Shown here: one piece after another, positions 5,199 through 53,039 of the stretch
Layout: the number at the start of each line of letters is the position of its first letter
Numbering within the stretch: the first letter of the stretch is position 1
DNA from: Deltaproteobacteria bacterium
GTDB taxonomy: Bacteria; Desulfobacterota; GWC2-55-46; DRME01
Direction of reading: 5' to 3'
Length of the DNA stretch: 64,000 bases
NCBI GenBank assembly: GCA_011375175.1
Contig: DRME01000072.1
Coordinates: forward strand, 1,782-65,781
Notes under the pieces: model-generated
The model's database searches: none
Told to the model about the DNA's origin: nothing
What the model saw: the letters and a program-made list of their open reading frames with translations, nothing else
Program-made: the position numbers and the translations under genes

Positions 5199-5199
5199 C

Positions 5200-19305: not shown

Positions 19306-19311
19306 CCCCCC

Positions 19312-33399: not shown

Positions 33400-33600
33400 G
33401 TTTGAACGGCGGGGGAACCTTTGAAAAAGGGGCCGCGGAGCCGCAGCCGGCCTCCGACCCCTGTCCCCGGTGGTTCCCAGCGGCGTCCTCCGGGAGGTCG
33501 GGGCGCAAGGGCGTATAATCCCGTCCCGGCGCGCCCCGACCTCCCGGAGGACGCCGTGAAGGCGCGGTCAAAGGGAGATCTCCCCCGGTGACGCCCTGTC
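33400..33600. repeat. Degenerate copy of the repeat family after glyA
   Basis: gggaacctttgaaaaagggg, and ccgggaggtcggggcgcaagggcgtataatcccgtcccggcgcgccccgacctcccgg (same architecture as the cgggccgcaaaggcgtaaaaatcccgcc core). Confidence 0.6.
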
Positions 33601-33763: not shown

Positions 33764-34831
33764 ATGGTGAAAGGCGAGCTCATGGATACCATGGGGTACA
33801 AGACTGAAGAGGCGCGCCACACCGGCAGCGGCGGCTCCATAGCCAGGCCTCACAGGGTGCTCATCGTCGACGACAATGCCCAGAACCTGGAGCTTCTCGA
33901 CGCCCTGCTGACCACGAGCGGCTACGAGGTCGTAAGGGCCTCGAACGGCAGGGAGGCGCTGGAGCGCGTGGAAGAGGACCCGCCCCACATCATCCTCCTC
34001 GACGTGCTCATGCCCGTGATGGACGGCTACGAGACGTGCCGCAGGCTCAAGGAGAGCGAGAAGACGCGTTTTATCCCCGTTGTCATGGTGACGGCCCTCA
34101 ACAGCCTCGAGGACCGGGTGCGCGGCATCGAGGCCGGCGCCGACGACTTCATATCCAAGCCCTTCCAGCGCCCGGAGCTGCTGGCCAGGGTCAAGTCGCT
34201 GGTGCGGGTCAAGGGTCTGCTCGACGAGCTCGAGAACGCCCACAACGTCCTCATAAGCCTCGCCGTGGCCCTCGACTTCAACGACCCCTACACCCACGGC
34301 CACTCCCAGCGGGTGGCCGAGTACGCCGCAAGGCTCGCGGCCTTCATCGGCCTCTCCGAGGAGGAGCAGGGCAACATACGCAACGCCGGCATCCTCCACG
34401 ACATAGGCAAGATAGCGACCGACAAGGGCGTGCTCCACAAGCCCGGCGCCCTCAACGACACGGAGTACGACCACGTGAAGCAGCACCCCGTGGTGGGCGA
34501 GAAGATATGCAGGCCGCTTAAGTTCGCGCAGCCCTTCCTCCCGGCCATCAGACACCACCATGAAAAGCACAACGGCACGGGCTACCCCGACGGCCTCGCG
34601 GGCGAAGAGATCCCCCTGGGCGGCAGGATAATCGCCATCGTCGACGTCTACGACGCCCTCACCACGGTGCGGCCCTACAGGCGCGGCATGCCGCCCAACG
34701 TGGCCGTCGAGGTGATGAAGGCCGAGGCGATCAAGGGCTTCTGGGACAGAAGGCTCGTCGACGCCTTCGCCGGCCTGCTCCGCGAGGAAGGCACCGCCGG
34801 GCGCACCCCCGCCCGGGCCATCGGCGTCTGA
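33764..34831 (+). CDS. Response regulator (receiver domain) fused to HD-GYP c-di-GMP phosphodiesterase domain
   Basis: Receiver RVLIVDDNAQNLELLDALLTTSGYEVVRASNGREALE...IILLDVLMPVMDGYE...IPVVMVTAL. HD-GYP: HGHSQRVAEYAARLAAF...ILHDIGKI...HHHEKHNGTGYPDGL. The start is uncertain (33764 or the ATG near 33782/33794). Confidence 0.8.
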   Translation: MVKGELMDTMGYKTEEARHTGSGGSIARPHRVLIVDDNAQNLELLDALLTTSGYEVVRASNGREALERVEEDPPHIILLDVLMPVMDGYETCRRLKESEKTRFIPVVMVTALNSLEDRVRGIEAGADDFISKPFQRPELLARVKSLVRVKGLLDELENAHNVLISLAVALDFNDPYTHGHSQRVAEYAARLAAFIGLSEEEQGNIRNAGILHDIGKIATDKGVLHKPGALNDTEYDHVKQHPVVGEKICRPLKFAQPFLPAIRHHHEKHNGTGYPDGLAGEEIPLGGRIIAIVDVYDALTTVRPYRRGMPPNVAVEVMKAEAIKGFWDRRLVDAFAGLLREEGTAGRTPARAIGV

Positions 34832-34889: not shown

Positions 34890-34980
34890 CCTTTCATTAC
34901 CCTGGGGGAGACGTGGGCCTATGGCCCTTCTACAGAAAGTTTCCCCCAGGGCAATTAATCAGGGTTTCCATCTTTCCACC
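34890..34980. repeat. Short copy (right-hand modules only) of the repeat family immediately upstream of the ANTAR regulator
   Basis: gggggagacgtgggcctatggcccttctacagaaagtttcccccagggcaattaatcagggtttcc. Confidence 0.75.
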
Positions 34981-34981: not shown

Positions 34982-35596
34982 ATGACCAGGACCGAGCAGA
35001 TGAGACCAGGGTCTGAGAGCCGCCCGGCCGGTGTCCTCGTCGTCGAGGATGACGAGGCGACGAGGCGGTGTCTCTGCGACCAGCTCACAACGCTGGGCTT
35101 CAAGGTGGCCGGCGCGCTCACTTCCGGCGAGGAGGCCGTCGAGCAGGTGGAGCGGATAAGGCCTTCGCTCGTGATAATGGACATCAAGATGCCGGGCATG
35201 GACGGCATCGAGGCGGCGAGGCTCGTGAGCCAGAGACACCCCTGCCCCGTCATCATCGTGACCGGCCACTCGCAGGAGGAGCTCATGGACGACGCCGCCG
35301 GGGCCGGCGTCTTCGCCTACCTCACGAAACCGGTCACCCGCGCCGCGCTCCAGCCGGCCATCAAGCTGGCGCTCGCCCGCTACGGCGAGTTCAGGGCGCT
35401 GAGCGAGGGCATAGACAACCTCAAGGAGGCCCTCGAAACGCGCAAATTGGTGGAGCGGGCCAAGGGCATTCTCATGAAGAGATGTAATGTAGGCGAGGAC
35501 GAGGCCTTCAGGATGCTCCAGGCCCACTCGCAGAGGGAGAACAGGAAACTCAAGGATATCGCGGAGATGGTCATCTCGGCGAGCAAACTCATGTAG
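34982..35596 (+). CDS. Response regulator with ANTAR RNA-binding antitermination output domain (AmiR/NasT-type)
   Basis: Receiver VLVVEDDEATRRCLCDQLTTLGFKVAGALTSGEEAVEQV...LVIMDIKMPGMDGIEAARLV...VIIVTGH. ANTAR: LETRKLVERAKGILMKRCNVGEDEAFRMLQAHSQRENRKLKDIAEMVI. Confidence 0.8.
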   Translation: MTRTEQMRPGSESRPAGVLVVEDDEATRRCLCDQLTTLGFKVAGALTSGEEAVEQVERIRPSLVIMDIKMPGMDGIEAARLVSQRHPCPVIIVTGHSQEELMDDAAGAGVFAYLTKPVTRAALQPAIKLALARYGEFRALSEGIDNLKEALETRKLVERAKGILMKRCNVGEDEAFRMLQAHSQRENRKLKDIAEMVISASKLM

Positions 35597-35662
35597 CCCC
35601 GGCAAAGCGGCTGGCCGGTTGTTCCAGAATTAATCGTGTATTAAAAGTTTGTAATTTTAAGC

Positions 35663-35691
35663 TTGACACCCGCACCGTTGTCTGATAACAT
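35663..35691 (+). promoter_or_regulatory. Sigma70-like promoter (TTGACA - 17 nt - TAACAT) preceding an approximately 250-nt structured leader of the OmcS-like gene
   Basis: TTGACA 35663-35668, spacer 35669-35685, TAACAT 35686-35691, in an AT-rich block (ttaatcgtgtattaaaagtttgtaattttaagcttgacac). The SD aggagg lies at about 35925 before ATG 35940. Confidence 0.45.
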
Positions 35692-35939
35692 GAGGGTAAA
35701 GGCGGAGTTGAAGGGGACGGATCATGACAGGGGCGTCCCTGCGGAGCGACGGTTGCTCGAGTATCCGCCTTGCGCGGCCTCAGAGGTTACGGCAGCCTCA
35801 CACGGTTACTGCAGGTGACGGTCTCCACTATACTTTTGAGGCTTTTTCTGTGTCTCGAAAGGGCGGCGTCAGGGTTCAGCAAAGGGTTTCAGGCTCATAA
35901 TCGTTTTTTAACCGTACCATCAGGAAAGGAGGATAGGGT

Positions 35940-37226
35940 ATGAAAAGGCTTGTGGTGGCAACCCTCGCAGCTGTCGCTGTCGGGCTCTTCGCGGCCGGGC
36001 CGTCCATGGCTCTCCACAAGAACTTCGACAACAAGCTCACATGCGGCAACTGCCACACCATGCACAACAGTCAGGGTAACAGCGAGATCGGCGGTACCAC
36101 GGGTACCGGGGCGCTCGTGCTTCTCAGGGGCAACGTCTCCGGCAGGCAGGAGATCCACAACTTCTGTCTCCAGTGTCACGCCTCCAACGGCGCCCAGGCC
36201 GGCGACACCTTCAACAACAACCACCCGGCTCCCAAGGTCTACATCGACGGCTCCGACGGCGGCGGCATAGGCGGTACCGGTGTGGACTTCAAGAGCACCG
36301 GCGACTTCGGCCAGATAGGCGCCGGCGGCGACTTCTCCGGCGAGCTCACCGGTAACAGCTCCGGCTGGAGTGTGAGGACCGACAGGGGCCAGAACAACAT
36401 AGCCCGCGGCTTCGGCCATTCGCTGGGCGCCACCAACGTGCTGCCTCCCGGCTCGGCCGACGGCAACCTCGCCGCTTTCTCCTGCACGAGCTGTCACGAC
36501 CCGCACGGCGCGTACGACGCCGACACCAGCACGGTCGACAAGTATCGTAACCTGAGGAAGACCCCCACCGGCTCTGGCTCCACTTCGGTCAACGTCAACG
36601 ACAACACGACGAGCTGGATAGGCATGGGCGGGCAGAGCTCGGCGGCCTTCGCCAACGCCGTCATGATCGGTACCGACAAGACGACGGCCATCTGGCCCGT
36701 CTACGACTCGGACAACACCCTCGTCGGTGACGGCGGCACGGCCGACCAGGCGATATCCAACTACTACCCCGTCAACTCGGGCGACAGCATCTCCAACTGG
36801 TGCGCCACCTGCCACGACAACTGGCACGAGGACATCGCCACGACCAACGACACGGGCAGCGGCGACTGGAGACGCCACCCGGTGGACGAGATAATCTACG
36901 CCCCCGGTAACGCCAACCAGAAGTCCGGCGCCGGCGTGGACATCATCAACCTGAGCAACTACACCCAGGCGCTCATCGCGGCCGGTAAGGCGCTGCCTGT
37001 GGCCAACAACGCGTCCGACGGCAGCGGTGTATACTACCTCGACCCGGCGAGCTACAACAGCACTGACAGGGTCTTCTGTCTCTCCTGTCACTTCGCCCAC
37101 GGCGGTCCCTACTACGACAACCTCAGGTGGGACTACCTCAGTGAGGTGTGGCCGGGCGGCTCGGCCGGTCAGTCCGGTAACTCCATCGCCTCGACCGTCG
37201 GTTGTCAGCTCTGCCACAACAGGTAA
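35940..37226 (+). CDS. OmcS-family six-heme c-type cytochrome (cytochrome nanowire subunit-like), secreted
   Basis: Signal peptide MKRLVVATLAAVAVGLFAAGPSMA. Six heme sites in the same order and context as Geobacter OmcS: CGNCHTMHN (OmcS CEGCHTMHN), CLQCHASNG (CLNCHQHAG), CTSCHDPHG (CSSCHDPHG), CATCHDNWHE (CANCHTDIHN), CLSCHFAHGG (CLSCHRAHAS), CQLCHNR (CNKCHAKD). G/S/T/N-rich low-complexity spacers, about 428 aa like OmcS. Confidence 0.75.
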   Translation: MKRLVVATLAAVAVGLFAAGPSMALHKNFDNKLTCGNCHTMHNSQGNSEIGGTTGTGALVLLRGNVSGRQEIHNFCLQCHASNGAQAGDTFNNNHPAPKVYIDGSDGGGIGGTGVDFKSTGDFGQIGAGGDFSGELTGNSSGWSVRTDRGQNNIARGFGHSLGATNVLPPGSADGNLAAFSCTSCHDPHGAYDADTSTVDKYRNLRKTPTGSGSTSVNVNDNTTSWIGMGGQSSAAFANAVMIGTDKTTAIWPVYDSDNTLVGDGGTADQAISNYYPVNSGDSISNWCATCHDNWHEDIATTNDTGSGDWRRHPVDEIIYAPGNANQKSGAGVDIINLSNYTQALIAAGKALPVANNASDGSGVYYLDPASYNSTDRVFCLSCHFAHGGPYYDNLRWDYLSEVWPGGSAGQSGNSIASTVGCQLCHNR

Positions 37227-37273
37227 AGACGACCGGTAGTCGGACGACGGTTCGACAAGGCTGAACTTCTGAA

Positions 37274-37307
37274 GGGGGGAGGGATTCACACTCCCCCCTT
37301 TTTTTGT
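37274..37307 (+). terminator. Rho-independent terminator after the OmcS-like gene
   Basis: gggggagggattcacactcccccc stem-loop followed by ttttttt. Confidence 0.6.
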
Positions 37308-37402
37308 GGCGGCCGCTGTCGCCGGCGGGAGGAGACCGGAGAGAAAGGTAACTCAGGGCTTCAACGGTCCGCCGCGACAGGGCCGGGAAACCGGGTGCGC
37401 AG

Positions 37403-38353
37403 ATGTCGGCAGTCATCTACAGGCTCATAGGCGCGGTTGTTGCGGCCGCGGTCCTGCTGCTCCCAACACCGTCAGGCGTCCACGCACAGGACGAGCAGCG
37501 CGGGCCGGCCACCGTCTACGTGAAGTTCCTCTTCGGCTTCGACGCAAAGCTCAGCGGCACACCCCTCACCTGGGTGAGCTGCATCTTCATCGACCCGGCC
37601 AGCGAGGAGGTCTACCTCCTCGACTCCGGCAACAGTCGGGTCGTCGTCACCGACAGGGAGGGCATCTTCCTCTACCAGTTCCGCTACAGCGAGGCCGGAC
37701 TCTCAAACCCCCGCTACCTCTCCGTCGATCCCCGAAACGGCGACATCTACATGGCCGAGAACAACCGCATCGCCGTGCTCAACTACAGGGGAGACTACAA
37801 GCGCGACGTGGACCTCACCAAGGTGCCGGACTACGAAAGACTCCAGATACAGTCCTTCTACATCGTATACGACGACGACGGCGGCGGCCGCATATACATG
37901 GGCGACAATACGCTCGGCAGGGTGGTGACCGTAACCCTCGACGGCGAGTTCGTCGGCCAGTTCGTGAGGGACGACGTGGTCTTCGGCAATGTCAAGGGCC
38001 TCTACGTCGACGAGGAGAACGAAGAGCTCGTCTTCCTCGATCCCGGCATGTTCAGCGTCTTCATCTTCGGTCTCGACGGCGAGTTCATCCACCGCTTCGG
38101 CCGTGTCTCCAGTCTCATGGGAGGGTTCAGCATGGCCACGGGCATGGCCGTGGACAAGGCCAACGGGAGGATAATCGTAGTCGACACGAACAGGATGATG
38201 ATCATAGGGTTCGACTGGGACGGCAAGGCCCTCTTCGAGTTCGGCGGCCCCACGGTCTTCAAGTGGCCCCGCGCCGTGGGCGTGGACTTCGAGGGGCGCA
38301 TATACGTGGCCGACAACACCGGGGTCATCAAGGTATTCGAGGTGGTGGAGTGA
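37403..38353 (+). CDS. Secreted NHL-repeat beta-propeller protein
   Basis: Signal peptide MSAVIYRLIGAVVAAAVLLLPTPSGVHA. Blades EVYLLDSGNSRVVVTD, DIYMAENNRIAVLN, RIYMGDNTLGRVVTV, ELVFLDPGMFSVFIFGLDGEF, RIIVVDTNRMMIIGFD, RIYVADNTGVIKVFEV. Confidence 0.75.
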   Translation: MSAVIYRLIGAVVAAAVLLLPTPSGVHAQDEQRGPATVYVKFLFGFDAKLSGTPLTWVSCIFIDPASEEVYLLDSGNSRVVVTDREGIFLYQFRYSEAGLSNPRYLSVDPRNGDIYMAENNRIAVLNYRGDYKRDVDLTKVPDYERLQIQSFYIVYDDDGGGRIYMGDNTLGRVVTVTLDGEFVGQFVRDDVVFGNVKGLYVDEENEELVFLDPGMFSVFIFGLDGEFIHRFGRVSSLMGGFSMATGMAVDKANGRIIVVDTNRMMIIGFDWDGKALFEFGGPTVFKWPRAVGVDFEGRIYVADNTGVIKVFEVVE

Positions 38354-38412
38354 GCGAAGCGTCCCCGCAGAGAGCTTCCTTGCGCCGGCGCCCACGGCGT
38401 GATGCGGCGTCC

Positions 38413-39318
38413 ATGGCCGGCGCCTGCCGCATAGGCGCCCTCGTCCTCGCCGCCGCGGCGCTCCTGCTCGCGCCGTGGGCCGGAGGCGGGGAGGCCCTGG
38501 GCAGCGTCCATGGACTGCGCCTGCTCAGCACCATAGAGCGCTACTACGGCGAGACCTTCGATACGCCGCTCGACATCTTCGTGAGCCTCGACGACGAGGA
38601 GATATACCTCGTCGACGGCGGAAGGAGCGAGGTCTTCATCTTCGACCTCGAGGGCACCCCCATCTTCCGCTTCGGCAGGCGCCAGGGCGTCTCCAATCCC
38701 ACGGCCGTGGCCGTGAGGGACGGGCTTATCTACCTCAGCCAGGAGGGAAAGGACTATATCGAGATATTCAACTACCGCGGCGAGAGCGTGGGACGCATAG
38801 CCCCGGACGGCGGCGTCCCCTTCAGCCCGGGCAAGATGCGTTTTGACGTGGCGGGAAACCTCTACGTGGTGAACAAGGCCCGGTCCACCTGTATCGTCTT
38901 CGACAGTGAGCTCAACTACGTGGGCGCCGTGGGCAGGCGCTTCAACTCGCTGACGGCCGTGGCCGTCTCCGAGGAGAGGGTGTATCTCATAACCCCCTAC
39001 GAAGAGCAGGCCGTCAACGTCTACGGCCTCGACGGCGCCTTCATCATGAGCTACGAGGCGCTGGAGACGAGGGGGGGGACGCTGGGGCTCCCCATCGACG
39101 GCCGTGTCGACGCCTCCGGGAACCTGTGGCTCGTCGATGCGCTCCGCGGCGTGGTGGTCTACGACCGGGACGGACGGGAGCGCTGGCGTTTCGACCGCTA
39201 CGGAACGGCCCGTGGAGAGGTCTTTTTCCCCGTCGATATTGATTTCGGCAGGGAAAATATGGTATATTTATTAGAAAAAGGCACTAAAAGAATCAGCGTT
39301 TTCAGGATGCTCGACTGA
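38413..39318 (+). CDS. Second secreted NHL-like beta-propeller protein
   Basis: Starts at in-frame ATG 38413 inside track ORF 37306..39318, which is an artificial fusion across the upstream antisense-free region. MAGACRIGALVLAAAALLLAPWAGG signal. Blades EIYLVDGGRSEVFIFD, LIYLSQEGKDYIEIFN, NLYVVNKARSTCIVFD, RVYLITPYEEQAVNVYGLDG, NLWLVDALRGVVVYD, MVYLLEKGTKRISVF. Confidence 0.65.
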   Translation: MAGACRIGALVLAAAALLLAPWAGGGEALGSVHGLRLLSTIERYYGETFDTPLDIFVSLDDEEIYLVDGGRSEVFIFDLEGTPIFRFGRRQGVSNPTAVAVRDGLIYLSQEGKDYIEIFNYRGESVGRIAPDGGVPFSPGKMRFDVAGNLYVVNKARSTCIVFDSELNYVGAVGRRFNSLTAVAVSEERVYLITPYEEQAVNVYGLDGAFIMSYEALETRGGTLGLPIDGRVDASGNLWLVDALRGVVVYDRDGRERWRFDRYGTARGEVFFPVDIDFGRENMVYLLEKGTKRISVFRMLD

Positions 39319-39422
39319 GTCCGGCGGTAGACGGCGAGAGCAACGCGGAAGTGTGCCAGTACCCCCGGCTCCCGGGCCGGCCGTGGCAGGGATAGGCCCA
39401 CACAGCCCCGAGAGGAAAGCGA

Positions 39423-40601
39423 ATGCCTTTGTCGACTGGAGTCTCAAACCGTGGAGCCCTCTGGAGGCTGATAAGCAGGGTCGTTTCTCTTGCAGCGGCG
39501 CTGCATATCGGCATCGGCGTCGGCCTGGCCGGCGAGTATCACGCCACCAAGGAGGAGACCTTCTCCAAGACCACGGAGACACTGGCCTGCTCGCAGTGCC
39601 ACACCATGCACGGCACCCAGGGCGGGGCGTCCATGATATACACGGGGGGGACGGCCACCTATCCGGCGCTCATCCGCGCCGCCTCCATAGTGGAGCTGTG
39701 CCGCACCTGCCACGAGGCCAACTCCCTGGGGATGAGCAATCCCACGCCGCCCGACGTGTGGAACAACACGCTCGGCTACGTGGCCTCGGCCGGCGACTTC
39801 AACGACAGGGGGGTCTCTCCGGCCAACGAGGCCAACCGCCATTCGGTGGGGCAGAGCAACAAGGTTCCGCCGGGCTCCAACCCGACGCTCACCATACCCT
39901 ACTTCAGCTGCATAAGCTGCCACGATCAGCACGGCAACACGAATTTCAGGAACCTGCGCTTTCGTCCCGGCAACGCCACATCGGACATAACGGTCAGCTA
40001 CAGGCTCGACAACAGCTCGCAGTGCTCGGACGGGACCTCCACGCCCTGTGACGTGAACAACGATACCACCTCAAACCCCCTTTCGCAGGCCAATCTCACC
40101 AAGTACCAGCGCGACAACGTGACGTTCACCAGGACGGCCAGCAACACCAACGGCATCGCCGCATGGTGCGGCGGCTGCCACAACGACTTCCACGGCGCCG
40201 GCGGGGCCTCCAACATGGGAGGAAGCCCCTCGGGCGACACCAACACGGGGAACCCGTGGAAACGCCATCCGGTGCGGGACGTCGATATAAACGAGGGACA
40301 GACCAACATGCACGCCGACAGGGCCAACTGGGCCTCCGAGTATCCGACCGCCCAGCTCAGGGTGGTCAACCCCGACGACGTAGACCCGACCTCCAGCGTG
40401 GCCGACGAGCAGCCCTTCTGCCTCACCTGCCACTATGCGCACGGCGGCGGCAACCCCAACAGCGCCACCGACCCGGCTTACGACCACAGCAACCTCGTGC
40501 AGCTCGATACGTCGGTGCCGCCGAAGCTCAACATCGAGAGCGGCTACAACACCTCCACCGGCATGCTCCGAAACGTCTGCCAGAAGTGCCACAACCAGTA
40601 G
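39423..40601 (+). CDS. Second OmcS-family six-heme c-type cytochrome paralog
   Basis: Signal segment LWRLISRVVSLAAALHIGIGVGLAGEYHA. Heme sites CSQCHTMHG, CRTCHEANS, CISCHDQHGN, CGGCHNDFHG, CLTCHYAHGGG, CQKCHNQ, collinear with 35940..37226 and with OmcS; T/N/S-rich spacers. Confidence 0.75.
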   Translation: MPLSTGVSNRGALWRLISRVVSLAAALHIGIGVGLAGEYHATKEETFSKTTETLACSQCHTMHGTQGGASMIYTGGTATYPALIRAASIVELCRTCHEANSLGMSNPTPPDVWNNTLGYVASAGDFNDRGVSPANEANRHSVGQSNKVPPGSNPTLTIPYFSCISCHDQHGNTNFRNLRFRPGNATSDITVSYRLDNSSQCSDGTSTPCDVNNDTTSNPLSQANLTKYQRDNVTFTRTASNTNGIAAWCGGCHNDFHGAGGASNMGGSPSGDTNTGNPWKRHPVRDVDINEGQTNMHADRANWASEYPTAQLRVVNPDDVDPTSSVADEQPFCLTCHYAHGGGNPNSATDPAYDHSNLVQLDTSVPPKLNIESGYNTSTGMLRNVCQKCHNQ

Positions 40602-40889: not shown

Positions 40890-41651
40890 ATGAAACAGAT
40901 CGGTCTTGTCGTCGTCATGGCCCTTCTCATAGGCGGGGTCATCTACGGCGGCTACTACGGCTACAAACTCAAGAACACGCCGCCCGAGCAGGTCGTCTAC
41001 ACCGACGCGGCGCAGATGCAAGAGGACATCGAAAGGCTCGAGGGCCTGAAAAAGAGCAGGGGTCTGAGCTGGCAGGACGCCTACCGTCTCGGCGTGGCCT
41101 ACGTCCAGAGCGGCCGCATCGCCGAGGCCGTGGCCCAGCTCGAGGACGTGGCCGAGCGCAGGCCCCGTTTCTACAAGACCTACGTCTCCCTCGGCATGGC
41201 CTATTTCCGCAGCGGAGAGTACGAGAAGGCCGTCTCCGCATGGAATACCGCCATGGAGCTCGACCCGGAGCAGTCGGCCTTCCTCGACGAGATGATAAAG
41301 AGGGCCGAGCGGAAGATCGAGTTCATAAAGAGGATAGCCGAGCTCGAAGAGGAGATACAGAGACCCGGAGCCTCGTGGGAGAAACGTTTCGAGCTGGCCA
41401 CCCTCTACTTCGGCATGAAAGAGGTCGCCAAGGCGAGAGAGCAGCTCGAAGAGGTCGTCAAGAGCCGCAAGGACATGCCCGAGGTGTACGACGCCCTCTC
41501 GCGCACCTACATGATGGAGGGGCGCGTAAAGGATGCCGCCGATGCGCTGGGCAGGGCCGCAGAGCTCAGCCCCGACAACGAAGACTACAAAAAACGCCTC
41601 TCCGAGATGGAGAACTACCTGGCCGCTCAAGAGGAGCGCCCCGACCGGTAG
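40890..41651 (+). CDS. TPR-repeat protein with N-terminal membrane anchor
   Basis: MKQIGLVVVMALLIGGVIYGGYY anchor. TPR units (AYRLGVAYVQSGRIAEAVAQLEDVAERRP; KTYVSLGMAYFRSGEYEKAVSAWNTAMELDP; ...ELATLYFGMKEVAKAREQLEEVV...YDALSRTYMMEGRVKDAADALGRAAELSP). Confidence 0.7.
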   Translation: MKQIGLVVVMALLIGGVIYGGYYGYKLKNTPPEQVVYTDAAQMQEDIERLEGLKKSRGLSWQDAYRLGVAYVQSGRIAEAVAQLEDVAERRPRFYKTYVSLGMAYFRSGEYEKAVSAWNTAMELDPEQSAFLDEMIKRAERKIEFIKRIAELEEEIQRPGASWEKRFELATLYFGMKEVAKAREQLEEVVKSRKDMPEVYDALSRTYMMEGRVKDAADALGRAAELSPDNEDYKKRLSEMENYLAAQEERPDR

Positions 41652-41749: not shown

Positions 41750-41965
41750 ACGGCCTCATATGATCGATTACCCTGAGGGAACCTTTTTGAAAAAAGGTTC
41801 CCTCAGACTCCCTCCAAAAACTTTCAATACGAGTTGGTTTCCCCCTGTTTTGCCAAGCAAAACAGGGGGAAACCAACTCGTATTGAAAGTCTTTGAAGGG
41901 GGTCTGGGGGAAACGTGGGCCTATGGCCCTTCTACAGAAAGTTTCCCCCAGGGTAATTAATCAGA
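41750..41965. repeat. MITE-like modular hairpin repeat element copy
   Basis: gatcgattaccctgagggaacctttttgaaaaaaggttccctcagactccctccaaaaactttcaatacgagttggtttccccctgttttgccaagcaaaacagggggaaaccaactcgtattgaaagtctttgaagggggtctgggggaaacgtgggcctatggcccttctacagaaagtttcccccagggtaattaatcagagtttgcc; nearly identical to copy 1 at 3086. Confidence 0.9.
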
Positions 41966-41999: not shown

Positions 42000-44192
42000 G
42001 TGCATACTCCTCGCGGAGAGTCTCAGTCCGGCGGTGGCAAGAGGTACTCGTTGAAACTGTACAGGCCCAAGATAGGCGTAGGTCCCAAGACATGGATGGC
42101 GTTGTCGGTGATATTCTGGGTGCCCATCGTGGGACTGGCCGCCGTCCTGTTTTTCTTTTTCAAGAGCATAGTCTATGAAGAGACGCTCGGTTCCATAAAC
42201 ATCCACCTCAAGGGGGCGGAGGGGGTGTTCAGCGAGCGCCGCCAGGTGGTGGAGAGTCTGGCCGCCGAGGCGGCCGGCCGTCAGGAGGTGCGCTCGGCGC
42301 TTGCGGGCCGTGACGAGGCCGCCCTGAGGTCGGTGCTGCTCGAGCTCGGAAAGCGCAATCCCTTCATCGACATCTGGGCCTTCGTAGACGACAAGCAGCG
42401 TGTCGTGGCCAGGCGAAGCGGCGCGAGCGGCGATATCATGCGCCTGGGCGACACAATCCCCAACGCCATAACCCAGGGCGATGTGACAAGCTCGGTGGAG
42501 CTTGTGAGCACCGAGTTCCTGGCCCGCGAGTCACGGGAGCTCACCGAGCGCATAAAGGACAAGACGGCCATAGCCCAGTTCGTCGTCGCTCCTGTGAGAG
42601 GCGGCGACAAGGTGATCGGCGCCCTCGTGGCCGGCATGGTCCTCTCCGGCGACCCCTGGCTCGGCAACGCGGTCTACGAGCGTTACGGCATAGAGCTCGC
42701 GCTCTTCGCAGGCGAGCCCCCGGAGTACTCCTTCCTCCACGCCACGGCCTCCCTGCCCAGGAGCACCTGGGTCATCGGCCAGCCCATACCCGAAAAGCTC
42801 AACTTCGAGATATCGCTCGGCAGGCCCTTCAGCGGCATCGTGACCGTAGACGGCAGGGAAAACCTCGTGGCCTTCGAGCCCCTGAAGGACAGCCGCAACC
42901 GCATCATCGGCGCCCTCGGCGTGAGCATGCCGGCAAAGGAGATCGAGGGGCTTGTGCTCCGCACCATCGCCAAGGGCGTTGCCATTGCGGCCCTGCTCGG
43001 TCTCGTAATAGCCGCCGTAGTCACCTTTTTCATCCATGCCGACATCACCAGGCCCATGAAGCTTCTGGTGGAGGCCATGGAGGCCTTCGGCAGAGGCGAG
43101 ATCGACATAAGCGTCGACCTCAAGACGGGCGACGAGTTCGAAACCCTCGGCTCGGGTTTCAACGTCATGGCCCAGGGCATCCAGAGGCGGGAAGAGCGTC
43201 TGAAAAAGCACAACGAGGTCGCCAAGCTGCTCATGAGCACCCTCAACCTGCAGGAACTCCTCGAGAGGATACTCGACATAGTCGTGGAGGTGACGGACTC
43301 GCAGCTTGGGATCATATACCTGTGCGAGAACGAGGGCGGCGAGGCGGTCCTCTCGCCGCGCGTGCGCTACGGCACGGCGTCGGAGCTCAAGACCCTGAAG
43401 ATTGACTCCGGCTATCCCGGCCGGGCCGCCAGGGACATGCGCACCTTCATCGTGGCGACGCCGGAGGGCGCCGAGGCGGAGCTCATGGAGCTCGGCTTTG
43501 CCAAGGTCACGCCCCGGGAGGTCGCCTACATACCGCTTTCCTACCAGGAAAAGCTGCTGGGCGTGCTCGTCGTGGGAAGCTCGGGCCGGTACAGCGAAGA
43601 CGAGGTCCAGCTCTTCGACTACCTGGCCAGCCAGATTTCCATCGCCCTCGACAACGCCATAATGCACCAGCAGATCCAGGAGCTCTCCATCACCGACGCC
43701 CTCACCGGCCTCTATAACCGCCGCTACCTCAACAAGCGGCTCGGCGAGGAGTGGGCACGCAGTCTGCGCCACAAGGAGCCGCTCTCCATCTTCCTCTCCG
43801 ACGTCGACAACTTCAAGTCCGTCAACGACACCTACGGCCACGACCGCGGCGACGAGGTCCTCAAGCACATCGCCGCCACCATCAAAAAATGCGTGCGCAA
43901 GGAAGACATCGCAGCCCGCTACGGTGGAGAGGAGTTCGTCATCGTGCTGCCGGACACGAAGGGCGAGGACGCCCGCGTCTTCGCCGAGCGCGTGGCCGCC
44001 GCCGTGAAGGAGCACAAGTTCGAGTGGATGGGCCGGGGTGTGACCATGAGCATAGGCATCGCCTGTCTCCCGGAGGTGAAGGTAGACAGCTACGACGACC
44101 TCGTCCAGGCCGCCGACCAGGCCATGTACCGCGCCAAGGTGACGGGCAAGGACCGGGTGGTGGTCAAGGGCGCCGACGGCGACGACGCATAG
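42000..44192 (+). CDS. Membrane sensor diguanylate cyclase (periplasmic sensor domain - HAMP - GAF - GGDEF)
   Basis: TM MALSVIFWVPIVGLAAVLFFFF; second TM and HAMP (AIAALLGLVIAAVVTFFIHADITRPMKLLVEAMEAFGRGE). GAF-like region. GGDEF domain with intact active site RYGGEEFVIVLPD and SITDALTGLYNRRYL. The start may instead be the ATG near 42103. Confidence 0.8.
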   Translation: MHTPRGESQSGGGKRYSLKLYRPKIGVGPKTWMALSVIFWVPIVGLAAVLFFFFKSIVYEETLGSINIHLKGAEGVFSERRQVVESLAAEAAGRQEVRSALAGRDEAALRSVLLELGKRNPFIDIWAFVDDKQRVVARRSGASGDIMRLGDTIPNAITQGDVTSSVELVSTEFLARESRELTERIKDKTAIAQFVVAPVRGGDKVIGALVAGMVLSGDPWLGNAVYERYGIELALFAGEPPEYSFLHATASLPRSTWVIGQPIPEKLNFEISLGRPFSGIVTVDGRENLVAFEPLKDSRNRIIGALGVSMPAKEIEGLVLRTIAKGVAIAALLGLVIAAVVTFFIHADITRPMKLLVEAMEAFGRGEIDISVDLKTGDEFETLGSGFNVMAQGIQRREERLKKHNEVAKLLMSTLNLQELLERILDIVVEVTDSQLGIIYLCENEGGEAVLSPRVRYGTASELKTLKIDSGYPGRAARDMRTFIVATPEGAEAELMELGFAKVTPREVAYIPLSYQEKLLGVLVVGSSGRYSEDEVQLFDYLASQISIALDNAIMHQQIQELSITDALTGLYNRRYLNKRLGEEWARSLRHKEPLSIFLSDVDNFKSVNDTYGHDRGDEVLKHIAATIKKCVRKEDIAARYGGEEFVIVLPDTKGEDARVFAERVAAAVKEHKFEWMGRGVTMSIGIACLPEVKVDSYDDLVQAADQAMYRAKVTGKDRVVVKGADGDDA

Positions 44193-45569: not shown

Positions 45570-46952
45570 ATGCTCAAAGGTCTTCTGAGGAAAAAGCGCA
45601 ACAGCAGGAAGCTCTGCATAGTCGGTCTCGACGGCGTGCCCTGCACGCTGCTCAAGGAATACATGGACAAGGGGTATCTGCCGTCCCTGTCGCGCATACT
45701 CGATGGCGGTTTCAGGCTCCACCAGATGGACGCCTCGATCCCCGACGTCTCGTCCACGTCGTGGACCTCCTTCATGACCGGCGTGAACCCGGCCGAGCAC
45801 GGCATCTACGGCTTCATGGACCTGCGGCCCGGAGGCTACGAGCTCTTCTTCCCCAACTCGTCGGACATAAAGGCCCCGGCGCTCTGGGACATCGCCGGGA
45901 AGAGAGTCGACGGCAAGACGTCGACTCTCGCCGAGAGTTACGGAGACCGCCTTTGCGAGCCTCTTCGTTCCGTCGTGCTCAACATACCGCAGACCTACCC
46001 GGCCCGGCCTCTGAACGGCCTGCTCACCGCCGGGTTCGTCTGCCCCGACCTGAGAAAGGGCACCTACCCAGACTCGCTCTACCGCTACCTCGACTCCATC
46101 GGCTATCTCTCCGACGTCGACGCAACCAGGGCGGTGAGCGACGCCGACGGCTTCTTCAGGGAGCTGTTCGAGGCCCTCGAAAAGCGAAGGATCGCCTACG
46201 AGCACCTCATGAGGAACGAGGAGTGGGACCTCTTCATCGGCGTAGTCACCGAGACGGACAGGCTCCACCACTTCTTCTTCCACGCGGCCCGCGACGACGG
46301 CGACCCGCGCCACCGGGTCTTCGTCGACCTCTACCGGGAGATCGACTCGCTCGTGGGCTCGCTCTTCGACACCTTCATGGACATGACCGGCGGCGAGGGC
46401 TTCTTCATGACCATGTCGGACCACGGTTTCACTACACTCGAGAGGGAATTCTACATCAACGCATGGCTCAGGCGCGAGGGCTTCCTCAAGCTCGACCCCT
46501 CGGGCAGCTTCTACGAGCAGGTGGCCGCGGGCACCAGGGCCTTTGCGCTCGATCCCGCCAGGATATACATCAACGTCGAGGGGAGGTATCCGCGTTCCGG
46601 TGTCGCCGCCGCCGACAGGGACGCCGTGAAGTCGGAGCTCAAGTCCCTCCTCTCGGAGATCCGCCACAGTGACGGCAGGAAGGTCGTAAGGGAGATATAC
46701 GACGGCGACGAAATCTACGACGGACCCATGCGCGCCAGCGGGCCGGACCTGGTCTGTCTCCCCAGCGACGGCTTCGATATCAAGGGCGCCCTGAAAAAGG
46801 ACGAGCCTTTCGGAAAGGGACACTTTACGGGAATGCACACATCCTATGACGCCCACTGCGTGCTGCCCGAGGGAGCGCGGACGCCGGAGCGCCTTCAGAT
46901 AGAGAACCTCGCCTGGATCGCCCTGGAATACCTCGCCGGTCGAGGCGCTTAG
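45570..46952 (+). CDS. Alkaline-phosphatase superfamily enzyme, type I phosphodiesterase/nucleotide pyrophosphatase-like
   Basis: KLCIVGLDGVPCTLLKEYMDKGYLPSLSRI...DVSSTSWTSFMTGVNPAEHGIYGF...FMTMSDHGF: metal-ligand pattern of the PF01663-type phosphodiesterase family. Confidence 0.65.
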   Translation: MLKGLLRKKRNSRKLCIVGLDGVPCTLLKEYMDKGYLPSLSRILDGGFRLHQMDASIPDVSSTSWTSFMTGVNPAEHGIYGFMDLRPGGYELFFPNSSDIKAPALWDIAGKRVDGKTSTLAESYGDRLCEPLRSVVLNIPQTYPARPLNGLLTAGFVCPDLRKGTYPDSLYRYLDSIGYLSDVDATRAVSDADGFFRELFEALEKRRIAYEHLMRNEEWDLFIGVVTETDRLHHFFFHAARDDGDPRHRVFVDLYREIDSLVGSLFDTFMDMTGGEGFFMTMSDHGFTTLEREFYINAWLRREGFLKLDPSGSFYEQVAAGTRAFALDPARIYINVEGRYPRSGVAAADRDAVKSELKSLLSEIRHSDGRKVVREIYDGDEIYDGPMRASGPDLVCLPSDGFDIKGALKKDEPFGKGHFTGMHTSYDAHCVLPEGARTPERLQIENLAWIALEYLAGRGA

Positions 46953-46973
46953 TTCGGAAAGGAGTTACATGCC

Positions 46974-47777
46974 ATGGATCATCTCAGTGCGCTGGAGAAC
47001 AAGAGCATCTTCATAATAAGGGAGGCCTACTACAGGTTCCGCAACATCGCCATGCTCTGGTCTGTAGGCAAGGACTCTACCACCCTTCTGTGGCTTTGCC
47101 GCAAGGCCTTCTTCGGCAGGATACCCTTTCCGGTAATCCACATCGACACGGGCTACAAGTTCCCCGAGATGTACAGGTTCAGGGACGAGTACGCCAGGAA
47201 ATGGGGGCTCAACCTCATAGTGGGGCGCAACGAGGAGAAGATAGCCGAGGGCATGGGGCCCGACAAGGGCGCAAAGCTCGACTGCTGCAACGAGCTCAAG
47301 ACCAACGCCCTCAAGCAGACCATAGCGAAGTACGGGATCGACGCGCTCTTGCTGGGCATACGGCGCGACGAGCACGGAATACGCGCAAAAGAGAGGGTCT
47401 TCTCGCCGCGCGACGACGACTTCAAGTGGAACTACGAGGACCAGCCCGCCGAGCTCTGGGACCAGTACAAGTCCACCGCCGCCGAGGACAATCACTTCAG
47501 GATACATCCCATACTCCACATGACGGAGCTTGACATCTGGCGCTACATCAGGCGGGAGAATATCCCTCTCTCGGAGCTGTATCTTGCCAGGGACGGCAAG
47601 CGCTACCGGAGCCTGGGATGCGTGCCATGCTGCGGCCCCGTGGAGTCGACGGCGTCGAACGTGGACGAGATTATATACGAGATCGAACACTCCACGACCT
47701 CGGAGCGCGCCGGAAGGGCCCAGGACAAGGAGGATGCCTACACCATGCAGAAACTGCGCTCGCTGGGCTACATGTAA
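46974..47777 (+). CDS. cysD: Sulfate adenylyltransferase subunit 2
   Basis: MDHLSALENKSIFIIREAYYRFRNIAMLWSVGKDSTTLLWLCRKAFFGRIPFPVIHIDTGYKFPEMYRFRDEYARKWGLNLIV... (PAPS reductase-like fold, SxGKDS motif). Followed 13 nt later by the cysN GTPase. Confidence 0.85.
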   Translation: MDHLSALENKSIFIIREAYYRFRNIAMLWSVGKDSTTLLWLCRKAFFGRIPFPVIHIDTGYKFPEMYRFRDEYARKWGLNLIVGRNEEKIAEGMGPDKGAKLDCCNELKTNALKQTIAKYGIDALLLGIRRDEHGIRAKERVFSPRDDDFKWNYEDQPAELWDQYKSTAAEDNHFRIHPILHMTELDIWRYIRRENIPLSELYLARDGKRYRSLGCVPCCGPVESTASNVDEIIYEIEHSTTSERAGRAQDKEDAYTMQKLRSLGYM

Positions 47778-47789
47778 GGAGGAACCGCG

Positions 47790-49013
47790 ATGATGGAGGA
47801 GAATTCGCTTCACATAGTGATAGTAGGGCACGTCGACCACGGCAAGAGCACCCTTATAGGGAGGCTCTTCTACGACACCGGTTCCCTCCCCCCCGACAAG
47901 CTCGAAGAGATAAGGCGCATAAGCGCTTCCCAGGGCAGGGACACGGAGTTCGCCTATGTGATGGATCACCTCGAGGAGGAGCGCAACAAGGGCATCACCA
48001 TAGACATAGCCCATACCTTCTTCACCACCGACAGGCGCCGCTACGTCATAATAGACGCGCCCGGCCACAAGGAGTTCATAAAGAACATGATAAGCGGAAC
48101 GTCGCAGGCCGAGGCGGCGCTCCTTCTCGTCGACATAAGCCAGGGCATAAGGGAGCAGACCCGCAGGCACTGCTACATACTGAGCATGCTCGGCGTGAGA
48201 CAGGTGGCGGTGGTGGTCAACAAGATGGACATGGTCGGCTACGACCGTCAGCGCTTCGAGGCCCTGGCAACGGAGATCACGGCGCTTCTCGAAGGTCTCG
48301 GCGTGACCCCTTCCTATGTGATACCAATCAGCGCAAAGCTGGGCGACAACGTGGCGGCCCGTTGCGAGCGGCTCGACTGGTTCGACGGTCCAACGGTGCT
48401 CGAGGCCCTTGACAGTTTCGAGGCCCTCAAGGTGGAGGAGAAGGGGTTGAGGTTCCCGGTCCAGGACATCTACGACCTCGACGGTGTCGCCGTCGCCGTG
48501 GGCCGGGTGGAGGCCGGACGGATCGAAAAGGGCCGCAAGGCGATAGTCCTTCCCGACAACAGGGAGGTGACGATCCTTGAGGTGAAGAAATTCGGCGAGG
48601 ACGACATGGCCTGCGCCGGCGCCGGCGAGTGTGTGGGGCTGAGGATCGAGGGAGAGGGGCTGCGCAGAGGTCACGTGCTCGTCGACAAGCCCACGGCGAC
48701 CGTGACCGACACCATAGAGGCCAATATCTTCTGGATGGTGGAGAAGGATTACGAGATGGGCGTTCCCGTCACATGGAAGTGCGCCACCCAGGAGGCGCGC
48801 GGCACGATAAGGAAGATCAGCAAGCGCTTTGATCCCGCCTCCATCGAGATCATAGAAAAGGACGCCAGCCGCATAAAGCCCGCCGAGGTAGCCGAGGTTG
48901 AGATAAGACTCGACCATCCGGTGGTCATCGACAGGTTCGCCGACATCCCCGAGATGGGGCGCTTCGTCCTGGAGCACAGGGGATACCCCGTCGCCGGCGG
49001 CATCATAATCTGA
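47790..49013 (+). CDS. cysN: Sulfate adenylyltransferase subunit 1 (GTPase; no APS kinase fusion)
   Basis: [20 protein letters not shown] (G1), DAPGHKEF (G3), NKMD (G4); 407 aa EF-Tu-like three-domain protein. Confidence 0.85.
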
Positions 49014-49153
49014 CGATTCGGCGGCCGCGGCGAACCGGCAATGGCGTGGTCTCGGGAAGGTCCGCCGCCGTGTGCTCCACGTGGCGACGGCAAACCTGCC
49101 AGTTCCTCACATAAAAACGTCTAATCAACGAAGTATGATGTCTTCAAACGTCT

Positions 49154-49500
49154 GTGGCGCAAGTGACTACGCAGCGTTCCGTACTCTGTGAGGGAGTTGG
49201 GGCATTCTGTTGCCGGCTGATAGAGTATTGTAGTCGAAGCGGCACGGCCACCTGCTTCCCGGCCGAGAGCCTGTTGTTCGACCGCCCTCTCGCAGCCTCG
49301 CTCGCTGAGGCAAGGCTCGACACCATATGCTTCTCCATTGATGACTTTGGTGGGACAGCGGATGCCGTTCGGCGGAAGCGGGTCGCATTCGTCAAGGTAA
49401 GACGGGTGCTCGAAAACGTCCTTACAGGGCGCGGCGGGGCAAACGACCGAAGATCGAGATATGCACGACCATATTCGATTCTGCAAGCGGTTGAAATCAA
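49154..49500 (+). pseudogene. Decayed fragment of a radical SAM/SPASM gene, paralogous to the central part of 58971..60128. It lacks the Cx3Cx2C N-terminus and is frameshifted after ...ENVL
   Basis: IEYCSRSGTATCFPAESLLFDRPLAASLAEARLDTICFSIDDFGGTADAVRRKRVAFVKVRRVLENVL aligns with IEHCSRNGMATYFPTNSLLLDRDTAASLVEAGLDTIYFSLDDVGETGDAIRGSDGSFAKVKQALENVL of the intact gene. The next conserved segment PKIEVCTTVSNM appears as KIEICTTIFD in a different frame (about 49448-49490) and is followed by a stop. Confidence 0.6.
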
Positions 49501-49516
49501 GGGACCGGAGGATGGC

Positions 49517-53010: not shown

Positions 53011-53039
53011 AGGTGGGGGCCGTATACGACTTGCAGGTT

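Follow-up and report, generated by a model that had tools for sequence, protein, structure and literature searches.

Results

Genes and features of the locus

The window analysed here, a stretch of DNA 64,000 nucleotides long, belongs to the MAG of an uncultured hydrothermal-vent 'Deltaproteobacteria' (Thermodesulfobacteriota-like) and carries the following features.

3573 to 20124, + strand: osc-like/EET island, recognised by tblastn, Pfam and heme counts
33764 to 34831, + strand: REC-HD-GYP regulator, a predicted c-di-GMP phosphodiesterase (Response_reg E 5.5e-32, HD_5 E 1.8e-34)
34893 to 34965, no strand assigned: one copy of a palindromic repeat dispersed in intergenic DNA, directly next to the ANTAR gene at its 5' end
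34982 to 35596, + strand: REC-ANTAR response regulator of the PdtaR/NasT type (REC E 7.4e-27, ANTAR PF03861 E 3.6e-23)
35663 to 35691, + strand: cytA promoter of sigma-70 type (TTGACA, 17 nt, TG-extended TAACAT), with an AT-rich, UP-like block in front of it
35692 to 35939, + strand: cytA 5' UTR, ~240 nt, with a strong Shine-Dalgarno sequence (GGAAAGGAGG)
35940 to 37226, + strand: cytA, an OmcS-family hexaheme c-type cytochrome of 428 aa that has a signal peptide and is the candidate for the major (filament) subunit
37274 to 37305, + strand: intrinsic terminator/attenuator directly 3' of cytA (GGGGGGAGGG, loop, CTCCCCCC, then T7)
37403 to 38353, + strand: NHL1, a secreted NHL-repeat beta-propeller (Pfam NHL E 7e-12) with an N-terminal signal-like sequence
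38413 to 39318, + strand: NHL2, a second secreted NHL-repeat beta-propeller (Pfam NHL E 2e-4)
39423 to 40601, + strand: cytB, a second OmcS-family hexaheme cytochrome, of 392 aa, in an OmcT-like position
40890 to 41651, + strand: TPR protein (Pfam TPR families), membrane-anchored, with an N-terminal hydrophobic helix, the conserved last structural gene
42000 to 44192, + strand: Cache-HAMP-GAF-GGDEF diguanylate cyclase (Pfam)

The six ORFs from the ANTAR gene to the TPR gene, all on the + strand, agree with the gene calls of the source contig, and the preliminary description had located them correctly. It was also right about the REC and ANTAR domains of the regulator, the two secreted propellers between the cytochromes (Pfam finds NHL repeats in both) and the TPR membrane protein, for which Pfam TPR repeats and the hydrophobic helix both speak. 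Related loci were gathered by hmmsearch iteration on ORFs, and the order conserved among them is REC-HD-GYP, promoter, cytA, intrinsic terminator, NHL, NHL, cytB and TPR protein; a GGDEF cyclase follows the TPR protein in the closest clade only. The 20-mer of the dispersed repeat, TTAATTACCCTGGGGGAAAC, has 6 matches in the window against 0.01 expected, and its copies can be aligned.

cytA and cytB belong to the OmcS family

Each cytochrome contains exactly six CxxCH motifs, and their local contexts are shared: CGNCHTMH in cytA and CSQCHTMH in cytB at the first site, CTSCHDPHG and CISCHDQHG at the third, CATCHDNWH and CGGCHNDFH at the fourth, CLSCHFAHGG and CLTCHYAHGG at the fifth, and CQLCHNR and CQKCHNQ at the C-terminal site. 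In the mature proteins the motifs start at residues 11/52/158/264/356/398 (cytA) and 18/55/125/211/295/348 (cytB), compared with 9/47/140/239/328/400 in OmcS, and such an OmcS-collinear set of six in each protein is far beyond chance. Threonine, serine, asparagine and glycine together make up 0.41 of mature cytA, 0.38 of mature cytB and 0.37 of OmcS, compared with 0.20-0.26 of the housekeeping proteins in the window. Both the heme-site contexts and the T/S/N/G richness had been pointed out beforehand, and both stand.

Similarity searches lead to the same family. The two cytochromes match OmcS with phmmer E values of 3.5e-8 and 2.9e-6, and the profiles of their two families match it at 4.6e-22 and 2.8e-17; OmcS is the sole significant PDB match of the cytA-family profile, and the cytB-family profile has one marginal second match (9yuq_N, E 9.7e-4). 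By BLASTP, cytA and cytB match Geomonas OmcS (E 1.8e-19 and 4.9e-6, respectively), and cytB also matches Geomonas OmcT (E 3.2e-7). Comparison of the window-family profile with OmcE (7TFS) was not significant (E 0.017). Pfam and NCBIfam returned no dedicated OmcS model, just generic Paired_CXXCH or cytochrome c3/c7 matches. cytB is the more conserved of the two. Both proteins conform to the OmcS fold. Sequence and profile matches, the fold and the conserved heme ligands all uphold the earlier assignment of both to the OmcS family.

All hemes of OmcS are bis-His ligated, and one ligand, on heme 5, is contributed by another subunit (PMC6584659, PMC7096707). Six histidines outside the motifs occur in shared context in OmcS and in both cytochrome families, with 99-100% conservation at each position, and since this is the number needed for six hemes, bis-His ligation is predicted for both cytochromes. 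In the alignment, OmcS His16 falls in CHTMH and His332 in the fifth CxxCH; the residues opposite His16 are H42 of cytA and H63 of cytB, likewise inside CHTMH and invariant (100%) in both families. His16 is reportedly the ligand that reaches heme 5 of the next subunit, and we take His42 of cytA and H63 of cytB to be its counterparts. cytA is a putative filament subunit.

Propellers, TPR protein and a separated osc-like island

The propellers have orthologues in the related locus L084 (52% identity for NHL1, 60% for NHL2), and in L085 and L086 the NHL1-equivalent gene is fused to an OmpA domain. NHL2 also resembles the propeller that flanks OmcS in Geomonas (BLASTP E 6e-9). The exact order of cytochrome, NHL, NHL and cytochrome recurs in L006, L008, L084, L085 and L086, and L084-L086, L090 and L091 have an orthologue of the TPR protein behind the cytB-type gene, with homologues in L016, L043 and L063. 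Fusion of the propellers to a peptidoglycan-binding OmpA domain in relatives suggests companions anchored to the cell wall, and it is plausible that the NHL proteins are assembly or anchoring companions, the part for which they had been proposed.

The preliminary description had taken the co-encoding of OmcS and NHL proteins to be undescribed, a view that does not survive comparison. GSU2505, adjoining omcS, is itself an NHL protein (PMC9070056), the osc operon is likewise published, and our profiling of NHL genes against OmcS homologues found that 46 of 83 related loci (28 of the 43 with full flanks) have NHL/beta-propeller genes next to the OmcS-like ones. The linkage spans phyla and includes the true OmcS/OmcT loci of Geomonas as well as Desulfuromonas and Anaeromyxobacter; the pairing is therefore not novel.

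Further companions lie in the osc-like island, which encodes a YncE-like propeller, a 711-aa secreted protein, GNA1162/CsgG-like lipoproteins, a SurA-like PPIase and a third NHL protein, together with 5-, 26-, 15- and 3-heme cytochromes. The osc-like companions, at 3.6-15 kb, are 21-32 kb upstream of cytA, and fatty-acid and C1 housekeeping genes occupy the interval between island and cassette. By tblastn the island module is homologous to one situated directly beside the cassette in L084 and L086. The island is collinear with the OmcS/OmcT companions of Geomonas (E 1e-13 to 1e-21); homologues of the PPIase (E 7e-16), the 762-aa protein (E 1e-13) and the 413-aa protein (E 1e-14 to 3e-16) of that locus are all found in the window. 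No large beta-barrel was positively identified in the assembly module, where the 711-aa protein is without a Pfam match.

Transcription signals of cytA and the ANTAR regulator

The promoter scan at cytA gave 10/12 matches with the TG, and L084, L085 and L086 preserve the block ATTAAAA..TAATTTT..CTTGACA..TGnTAnCnT unchanged. The leader behind it is only loosely conserved in relatives, its fold is no more structured than shuffled sequence (z-score -0.04), and no terminator was found in it. Rfam scans, run on 33.4-42.1 kb with a cut-off of E<=10 and on the entire window with gathering thresholds, detected neither a GEMM riboswitch nor any other cis-regulatory family; the sole matches were to miRNA models, owing to long palindromes. 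The terminator behind cytA combines a -17.6 kcal/mol hairpin with a U-run (z-score of the region -2.78), and an equivalent occupies this position in each of the 9 close loci. Family-wide, terminators follow 37 of 128 OmcS-like genes versus 6 of 84 NHL genes. We infer that this conserved attenuator marks cytA as the major subunit. A promoter-like site lies near 39239.

The position of the ANTAR gene, directly upstream of cytA and on the same strand, had led to the proposal of RNA-level antitermination control. The phosphorylated regulator would bind nascent cytochrome mRNA and block termination, and the strong intrinsic terminator right after cytA would give an antiterminator something to act on; a single hairpin with an AAAGCG hexaloop also lies just past the ANTAR stop codon (35599-35614). 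We nevertheless consider such control of the OmcS-like operon very improbable. The ANTAR gene is absent from 88 of 88 related loci, though the cytA promoter and terminator are conserved there, and it sits upstream of that promoter. In other genomes its slot is empty or holds an ORF of unknown type or a transposase. Homologues of the regulator are labelled PdtaR or NasT by their sources. Its closest relatives adjoin thiamine biosynthesis genes, and for one of these the MAG bears the cytochrome cassette on a different contig.

ANTAR targets are reportedly two tandem hairpins with AxxGxx hexaloops that compete with a terminator upstream of or within the regulated operon. Neither the cytA leader nor the three cassette intergenic regions contain tandem perfect-stem hairpins of this kind, and single ones occur there at background frequency. 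No tandem pair lies upstream of the post-cytA terminator, and none overlaps its 5' arm. The fold z-score of the leader also counts against antitermination. As the targets of ANTAR regulators can also be non-canonical or distant, a role here keeps a small probability. Taken together, the regulator looks like a passenger in a variable slot and not the controller of the cassette. A recent foreign insertion of the ANTAR gene is not supported, since no direct repeats flank it and its GC3 matches that of its neighbours; the findings point to a variable slot.

c-di-GMP genes flank the cassette

The HDIGK and GYP motifs of the REC-HD-GYP regulator are intact, as are the GGEEF motif and the RxxD I-site of the cyclase. 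Upstream of cytA, L084 and L086 carry orthologues of the REC-HD-GYP regulator (66-72% identity), and L090 and L091 have a protein of this domain architecture there, so that it is kept upstream of the cassette in 5/5 contexts. Cyclase orthologues (57-61% identity) occupy the same position in L084, L085 and L086 and are absent from L090 and L091, which places a cyclase next to the cassette in 4/6 contexts. No c-di-GMP effector or riboswitch was found in the searches of the locus. Synteny suggests that expression or assembly of the cassette is probably tied to c-di-GMP through REC-HD-GYP, to which the closest clade adds the Cache-GGDEF cyclase.

Discussion

The cassette is a true but unremarkable relative of the "nanowire" cytochrome cluster around Geobacter OmcS. 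We read it, with a probability of roughly 0.8, as an OmcS-family extracellular-electron-transfer cassette that is a divergent counterpart of the Geobacter omcS/omcT and osc system, with the ANTAR gene as a passenger. In the mechanism that we propose, cytA would be an abundantly expressed major subunit. After export by Sec it would receive its hemes in the periplasm, and the subunits would then polymerise head-to-tail, His42 of one binding heme 5 of the next, to give an insulated heme wire. Read-through of the terminator, possibly aided by the promoter-like site near 39239, would yield the downstream products in lower amounts. These are the NHL propellers, both periplasmic, the OmcT-like cytB and the membrane-anchored TPR protein; they may help cytochrome folding, export or anchoring, and c-di-GMP signalling via REC-HD-GYP (with Cache-GGDEF in the closest clade) would probably be tied to expression or assembly.

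Two other readings concern parts of this proposal, and both seem to us possible but rather doubtful. cytA and cytB may share the OmcS fold and yet be non-polymerising carriers, monomeric or surface-bound, that the NHL propellers hold at the outer membrane, possibly for electron uptake and not export. Such a role would suit the proposal that the NHL propellers of Desulfovibrio ferrophilus stabilise outer-membrane cytochrome complexes (PMC5815863), and it accords with the Geobacter OmcS paralogues OmcT, OscC and OmcJ, which have no known filaments, with further paralogues in the same MAG that have no NHL neighbours (L003), with a C-terminal region unlike that of OmcS, and with the 26- and 15-heme cytochromes of the window, which could make a conduit. 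Polymerisation is favoured by the fully conserved counterpart of the reported inter-subunit histidine in both families, by the presence in the window of companions homologous to OmcS-locus machinery, and by the promoter-then-terminator layout at cytA, which fits a highly expressed structural subunit. The other reading has the cyclase and the HD-GYP protein governing the adjacent exopolysaccharide/exosortase locus and general biofilm functions, their place beside the cassette being coincidental. An exosortase/EPS locus indeed begins right behind the cyclase, the cyclase gene of L085 is followed by one for a PEP-CTERM protein, and L090 and L091 lack the cyclase; against this, REC-HD-GYP stays directly 5' of cytA in five genomes whose flanks otherwise differ, and the cyclase stays behind the TPR gene in four with different neighbours further on: L084 and L086 have cytochromes there, L085 the PEP-CTERM protein and the window EPS genes. 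A composite of several ideas, in which cytA and cytB build two distinct filaments, or one mixed filament with cytB as conserved base or adaptor, c-di-GMP switches the system through REC-HD-GYP/GGDEF, and a translocated ANTAR regulator tunes read-through of the post-cytA terminator at a non-canonical RNA site here, strikes us as a long shot. Distinct filament types for the two paralogues, as the preliminary description suggested, are speculation.

The OmcS-family cassette adds a divergent, well-supported example from uncultured hydrothermal Thermodesulfobacteriota-like and Nitrospinota lineages, in agreement with the published view that OmcS-type machinery is widespread. Its compact conserved gene order is a useful detail and, together with the cytA attenuator and the OmpA-fused propellers, could guide heterologous expression of new cytochrome wires. 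It offers no new regulatory principle, as the ANTAR link fails: the regulator has the REC+ANTAR architecture of the antiterminators EutV, AmiR, NasR/NasT and PdtaR but, unlike them, has neither an adjacent target RNA motif nor a conserved linkage to the downstream genes.

Among cytochrome clusters with beta-propellers, those of D. ferrophilus (PMC5815863) pair multiheme cytochromes with co-expressed NHL-repeat proteins, the proposed complex stabilisers; those cytochromes, however, have 12-14 hemes and form a clade apart from OmcS in the tree of that study, and no OmcS fold is implied. OmcE clusters (bioRxiv 10.1101/2025.10.22.684050) follow a similar minimal plan, in which a nanowire subunit is joined by two beta-propeller lipoproteins, by a large outer-membrane protein and by additional multiheme cytochromes, although OmcE is tetraheme and of unrelated fold. 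The closest known system is Geobacter sulfurreducens OmcS (GSU2504; PDB 6EF8/6NEF) with its paralogue OmcT. As far as the osc (omcS companion) operon of that species is described in the citing article (Shen et al. 2025, Cell Chem Biol 32:239, as cited in PMC13194489), it and GSU2505 share with the window OmcS-like paralogues accompanied by beta-propellers, and the window has candidate counterparts of its PPIase-type chaperone (OscH-like) and of its large secreted or lipoprotein components. By the same account the window differs in that its machinery is split, the companions lying at 3.6-15 kb and the cytochrome cassette occupying 35.9-41.7 kb, and in that two small NHL propellers and a TPR protein accompany the cytochromes. 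The Geomonas OmcS/OmcT locus is matched throughout, as the window has a homologue of each of its companions in the same order.

Two hexaheme cytochromes of the OmcS family

The six open reading frames (ORFs) named in the preliminary description were found where it had placed them, in agreement with the gene calls of the source contig (87 kb, locus tags ENJ37_, from a hydrothermal-vent metagenome MAG submitted under the name 'Deltaproteobacteria bacterium'). We refer to the two cytochromes as cytA and cytB, to the NHL-repeat proteins as NHL1 and NHL2, and to cytA, NHL1, NHL2, cytB and the TPR gene together as the cassette.

Genes of the cassette and the adjacent regulator
34982-35596, +, REC and ANTAR domains (Pfam)
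35940-37226, +, cytA, 428 aa, exactly six CxxCH
37403-38353, +, NHL1, NHL repeats (Pfam)
38413-39318, +, NHL2, NHL repeats (Pfam)
39423-40601, +, cytB, 392 aa, exactly six CxxCH
40890-41651, +, TPR repeats (Pfam)

The heme-motif contexts that had been likened to OmcS are present in both cytochromes, as is the claimed T/S/N/G richness (0.41 in cytA and 0.38 in cytB, compared with 0.37 in OmcS and 0.20-0.26 in housekeeping proteins of the window). When the PDB was searched by sequence, OmcS (6EF8/6NEF) was the sole significant match to either protein (E 3.5e-8 for cytA, 2.9e-6 for cytB). Family profiles strengthened these matches: that of cytA aligned collinearly over OmcS residues 8-363 (E 4.6e-22) and that of cytB over residues 9-405, including all six motifs (E 2.8e-17), while OmcE (7TFS) gave no significant match to the profiles. 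Aligned to each other with hhalign, the two families match with a probability of 100% (E 6e-57). In both proteins the first four heme intervals resemble those of OmcS, and the last is shorter (42 and 53 residues vs 72 in OmcS).

All hemes of OmcS are bis-His ligated, with the distal ligand of heme 5 donated by the neighboring subunit (PMC6584659, PMC7096707). Exactly six histidines outside the heme motifs are common in context to OmcS, the cytA family (n = 114) and the cytB family (n = 92), each of them 99-100% conserved.

Candidate distal-ligand histidines by context, in OmcS, cytA and cytB
N-terminal x-His: H2, H26, H40
CHTMH: H16, H42, H63
GH: H110, H160, H140
DPH/DQH: H147, H189, H170
RHP: H257, H313, H282
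xAH: H335, H387, H340

His16 of OmcS is reportedly the cross-subunit ligand, paired with His332 (Wang et al. 2019); in our alignment numbering the fifth CxxCH ends in His332, which agrees with that pairing. Sequence, fold, ligands and spacing are four independent lines of evidence, which together give good support for assigning cytA and cytB to the OmcS family; that they form filaments is what we infer.

Among 1.84 billion representatives, a cutoff of E<=1e-3 yields ~1,640 clusters of the superfamily (50% identity). The same MAG holds two further OmcS-like paralogues, P0043 and the 472-aa P0118, which is encoded on another contig (L003, 7249-8667) beside a cluster of tolQ/tolR/tolA-like, OmpA(Pal)-like and YbgF-like genes, with no NHL genes among these neighbors. 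A marginal match to the cytB-family profile (E 9.7e-4) was a 218-aa 'putative multiheme cytochrome c' present as 16 chains in its entry (PDB 9yuq_N), which may be another polymeric cytochrome.

Propeller companions and an extracellular electron transfer island

We searched 83 related loci (80 on reference contigs, one genome per species, and three from close metagenomic relatives) with an HMM iterated from NHL1 and NHL2. In 46 of these loci an NHL or other propeller gene lies no more than 700 nt from an OmcS-like gene and in the same orientation, and 28 of the 43 loci with at least 2.5 kb of flank on both sides have such a neighbor. Nitrospinota MAGs (L006, L008) share the exact cytochrome-NHL-NHL-cytochrome order, as do the closest relatives (L084-L086). 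Two of these relatives have their first NHL protein fused to a C-terminal, peptidoglycan-binding OmpA domain (L085, 2353-3792; L086, 11629-13053), which suggests a periplasmic, peptidoglycan-anchored placement of the NHL companions.

In L084, L086, L090 and L091 a second module lies immediately next to the cassette. It encodes a SurA-like PPIase, a multiheme protein of 645-664 aa, an NHL protein, a c7-like cytochrome and other cytochromes; the L084 module additionally encodes a YncE-like propeller, a 697-aa protein without a Pfam hit and small lipoproteins. By tblastn this module maps to window positions 3573-20124 (+), although here, unlike in the relatives, it is split from the cassette by ~13.6 kb of housekeeping genes (plsX, fabHDG, acpP, fabF, rpiB, glyA).

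Genes of the island, all +
3573-5198, YncE/lactonase-like propeller
5200-7335, 711-aa secreted protein, no Pfam hit
7498-8184, 8346-10745 and 12574-13143, GNA1162/CsgG-like lipoproteins
10750-11964, 5-heme cytochrome
12014-12577, small HAMP protein
13485-15038, SurA-like PPIase
15031-17016, 26-heme cytochrome
16998-18299, 15-heme cytochrome
18310-19305, third NHL protein
19312-20124, 3-heme c7-like lipoprotein

A true OmcS/OmcT locus in Geomonas limicola (L024; 55% and 50% identical to 6EF8) encodes, in order, a TPR protein, a 321-aa propeller, OmcS, OmcT, a 480-aa YncE-like propeller lipoprotein, proteins of 762 and 413 aa and a 634-aa PPIase. The propeller (E 1e-21), 711-aa protein (1e-13), lipoproteins (1e-14 to 3e-16) and PPIase (7e-16) of the island have homologs, in collinear order, among these Geomonas companions of OmcS.

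Transcription layout and regulation

Alignment of the region upstream of cytA with L084, L085 and L086 revealed an invariant promoter block at 35663-35691, consisting of an AT-rich UP-like element, CTTGACA, 17 nt and TGnTAnCnT. An intrinsic terminator follows cytA at 37274-37305 (GGGGGGAGGG-loop-CTCCCCCC and seven T; -17.6 kcal/mol, region z-score -2.78), and an equivalent with a different stem sequence occupies the same position in 9/9 close loci inspected; across the family, terminators follow 37 of 128 OmcS-like genes vs 6 of 84 NHL genes. A conserved strong promoter, Shine-Dalgarno sequence and terminator are arranged as for a major-subunit gene with high expression, followed by accessory genes that read-through would express at a lower level. 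Identity to the L084 orthologues is 72% for cytB vs 56% for cytA, as would fit tighter constraint on cytB and faster evolution of an exposed cytA. A promoter-like site within the 3' end of NHL2 (39239-39268; TTGATT, 18 nt, TATATT, with TG) could provide cytB with its own transcription start.

The preliminary description had placed the cassette under antitermination control by the ANTAR regulator, a proposal that we now consider very improbable, with five observations against it. An ANTAR gene was present in none of the 88 related loci examined, the sole matches being copies on the window's own contig. The promoter block is also kept in relatives that lack the gene, which therefore lies upstream of the cytA promoter and outside the transcribed leader, in a slot of variable content between the promoter and a conserved REC-HD-GYP gene.

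Content of the slot
L084 and L086: empty
L090, 8223-8606: unknown ORF of 127 aa
L091, 7788-8659: IS200/IS605-type Y1 transposase and a small (82-aa) ORF
Window: ANTAR gene

The cytA leader (~240 nt) folds no better than shuffled sequences (z -0.04) and contains neither a terminator nor tandem AxxGxx hexaloop hairpins; such hairpins are absent from every intergenic region of the cassette. Rfam yielded no cis-regulatory family, GEMM riboswitches included. The regulator is one of a very large family of the PdtaR/NasT type, and its closest relatives (58-59% identity) are all flanked by a GT2/DUF2304 group on one side and by thiH-like/thiS/thiG/lgt/thiE/thiC genes on the other; one such relative is in the MAG (GCA_040960315.1) that bears the L086 cassette on another contig. 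Since its GC3 equals that of its neighbors and no direct-repeat scars flank it, the gene is best read as native, moved or duplicated, and recent foreign DNA is not supported. The evidence thus supports an incidental position beside the cassette, and the regulatory novelty behind the earlier proposal is absent.

In L087-L089, where these closest relatives lie (~6001-6600), the conserved order is GT2, DUF2304, an unknown gene, the ANTAR response regulator and the thiH-like/thiS/thiG/lgt/thiE/thiC genes, with the regulator ~300-500 nt before the thiH-like gene (two in tandem in L088); ANTAR control of thiamine genes is a possibility in this context.

A dispersed palindromic intergenic repeat of ~70-110 nt (core CTGGGGGAAAC-GTGGGCCTATGGCCCTTCTACAGAAA-GTTTCCCCCAGGGCAATTAATCAG) has copies just 5' of the ANTAR gene (abutting its 5' end), the cyclase gene and the island; a 20-mer from it gave 6 matches vs 0.01 expected.

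Copies of the dispersed repeat
3253-3272
22169-22188
34893-34965
41895-41965
53312-53331

Two near-perfect long palindromes score against miRNA models on both strands: 41796-41914, which separates the TPR gene from the cyclase gene and runs into the dispersed repeat, and 33481-33556, a perfect 26-nt inverted repeat after glyA. A PEP-CTERM/exosortase exopolysaccharide locus occupies 45570-63573 (+), with genes for CysD/CysN-like sulfate activation, a sulfatase-family protein, FemAB-type GNATs, a polysaccharide deacetylase, exosortase EpsH with EpsI, a radical-SAM/SPASM protein and a flippase. The low-GC stretches of 50-56 kb and 62-64 kb fall within this locus.

Proposed assembly and alternatives

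The steps backed by evidence are the OmcS-family identity, fold and ligand set, the conserved companions and the promoter and terminator architecture. Building on these, we propose that cytA would be exported by Sec, loaded with heme in the periplasm and polymerized head-to-tail, His42 of one subunit ligating heme 5 of its neighbor. Assistance and anchoring would come from the TPR membrane protein, the NHL propellers in the periplasm and the osc-like module farther away (osc, "omcS companion" operon of G. sulfurreducens), while cytB would resemble OmcT and serve as a minor or alternative component. Judged from sequence, electron flow may run in either direction, export or uptake. It is conceivable, if rather doubtful, that these OmcS-fold cytochromes do not polymerize and are held by their NHL partners.

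The cassette may also receive c-di-GMP input. Each of the five genomes with context has the REC-HD-GYP response regulator 5' of cytA, and in the four closest genomes the gene after the TPR gene encodes a Cache-HAMP-GAF-GGDEF cyclase. The catalytic motifs of both are intact. Effects of c-di-GMP on Geobacter extracellular electron transfer genes are already under study (PMC12285248, PMC12094021); with the conserved synteny, this makes such input plausible and unsurprising. That these enzymes instead serve the adjacent exosortase locus, and not the cytochromes, seems unlikely to us, although its proximity speaks for it.

Comparison with known systems

The co-encoding of OmcS homologs with NHL proteins had been thought undescribed, which is wrong because the association of propellers with cytochromes is already in the literature. 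GSU2505 is an NHL protein encoded beside omcS (PMC9070056). As cited in PMC13194489, the osc operon (Shen et al. 2025) comprises OscH for folding, OscE/F/G for secretion, OscD for morphology and the OmcS-like paralogues OmcT and OscC; beta-propeller pairs are found in OmcE clusters (bioRxiv 10.1101/2025.10.22.684050) and NHL propellers in the cytochrome clusters of D. ferrophilus (PMC5815863). The companion machinery is already published as widespread, and the cassette extends it to uncultured vent, groundwater and sediment lineages, with some useful architectural details.
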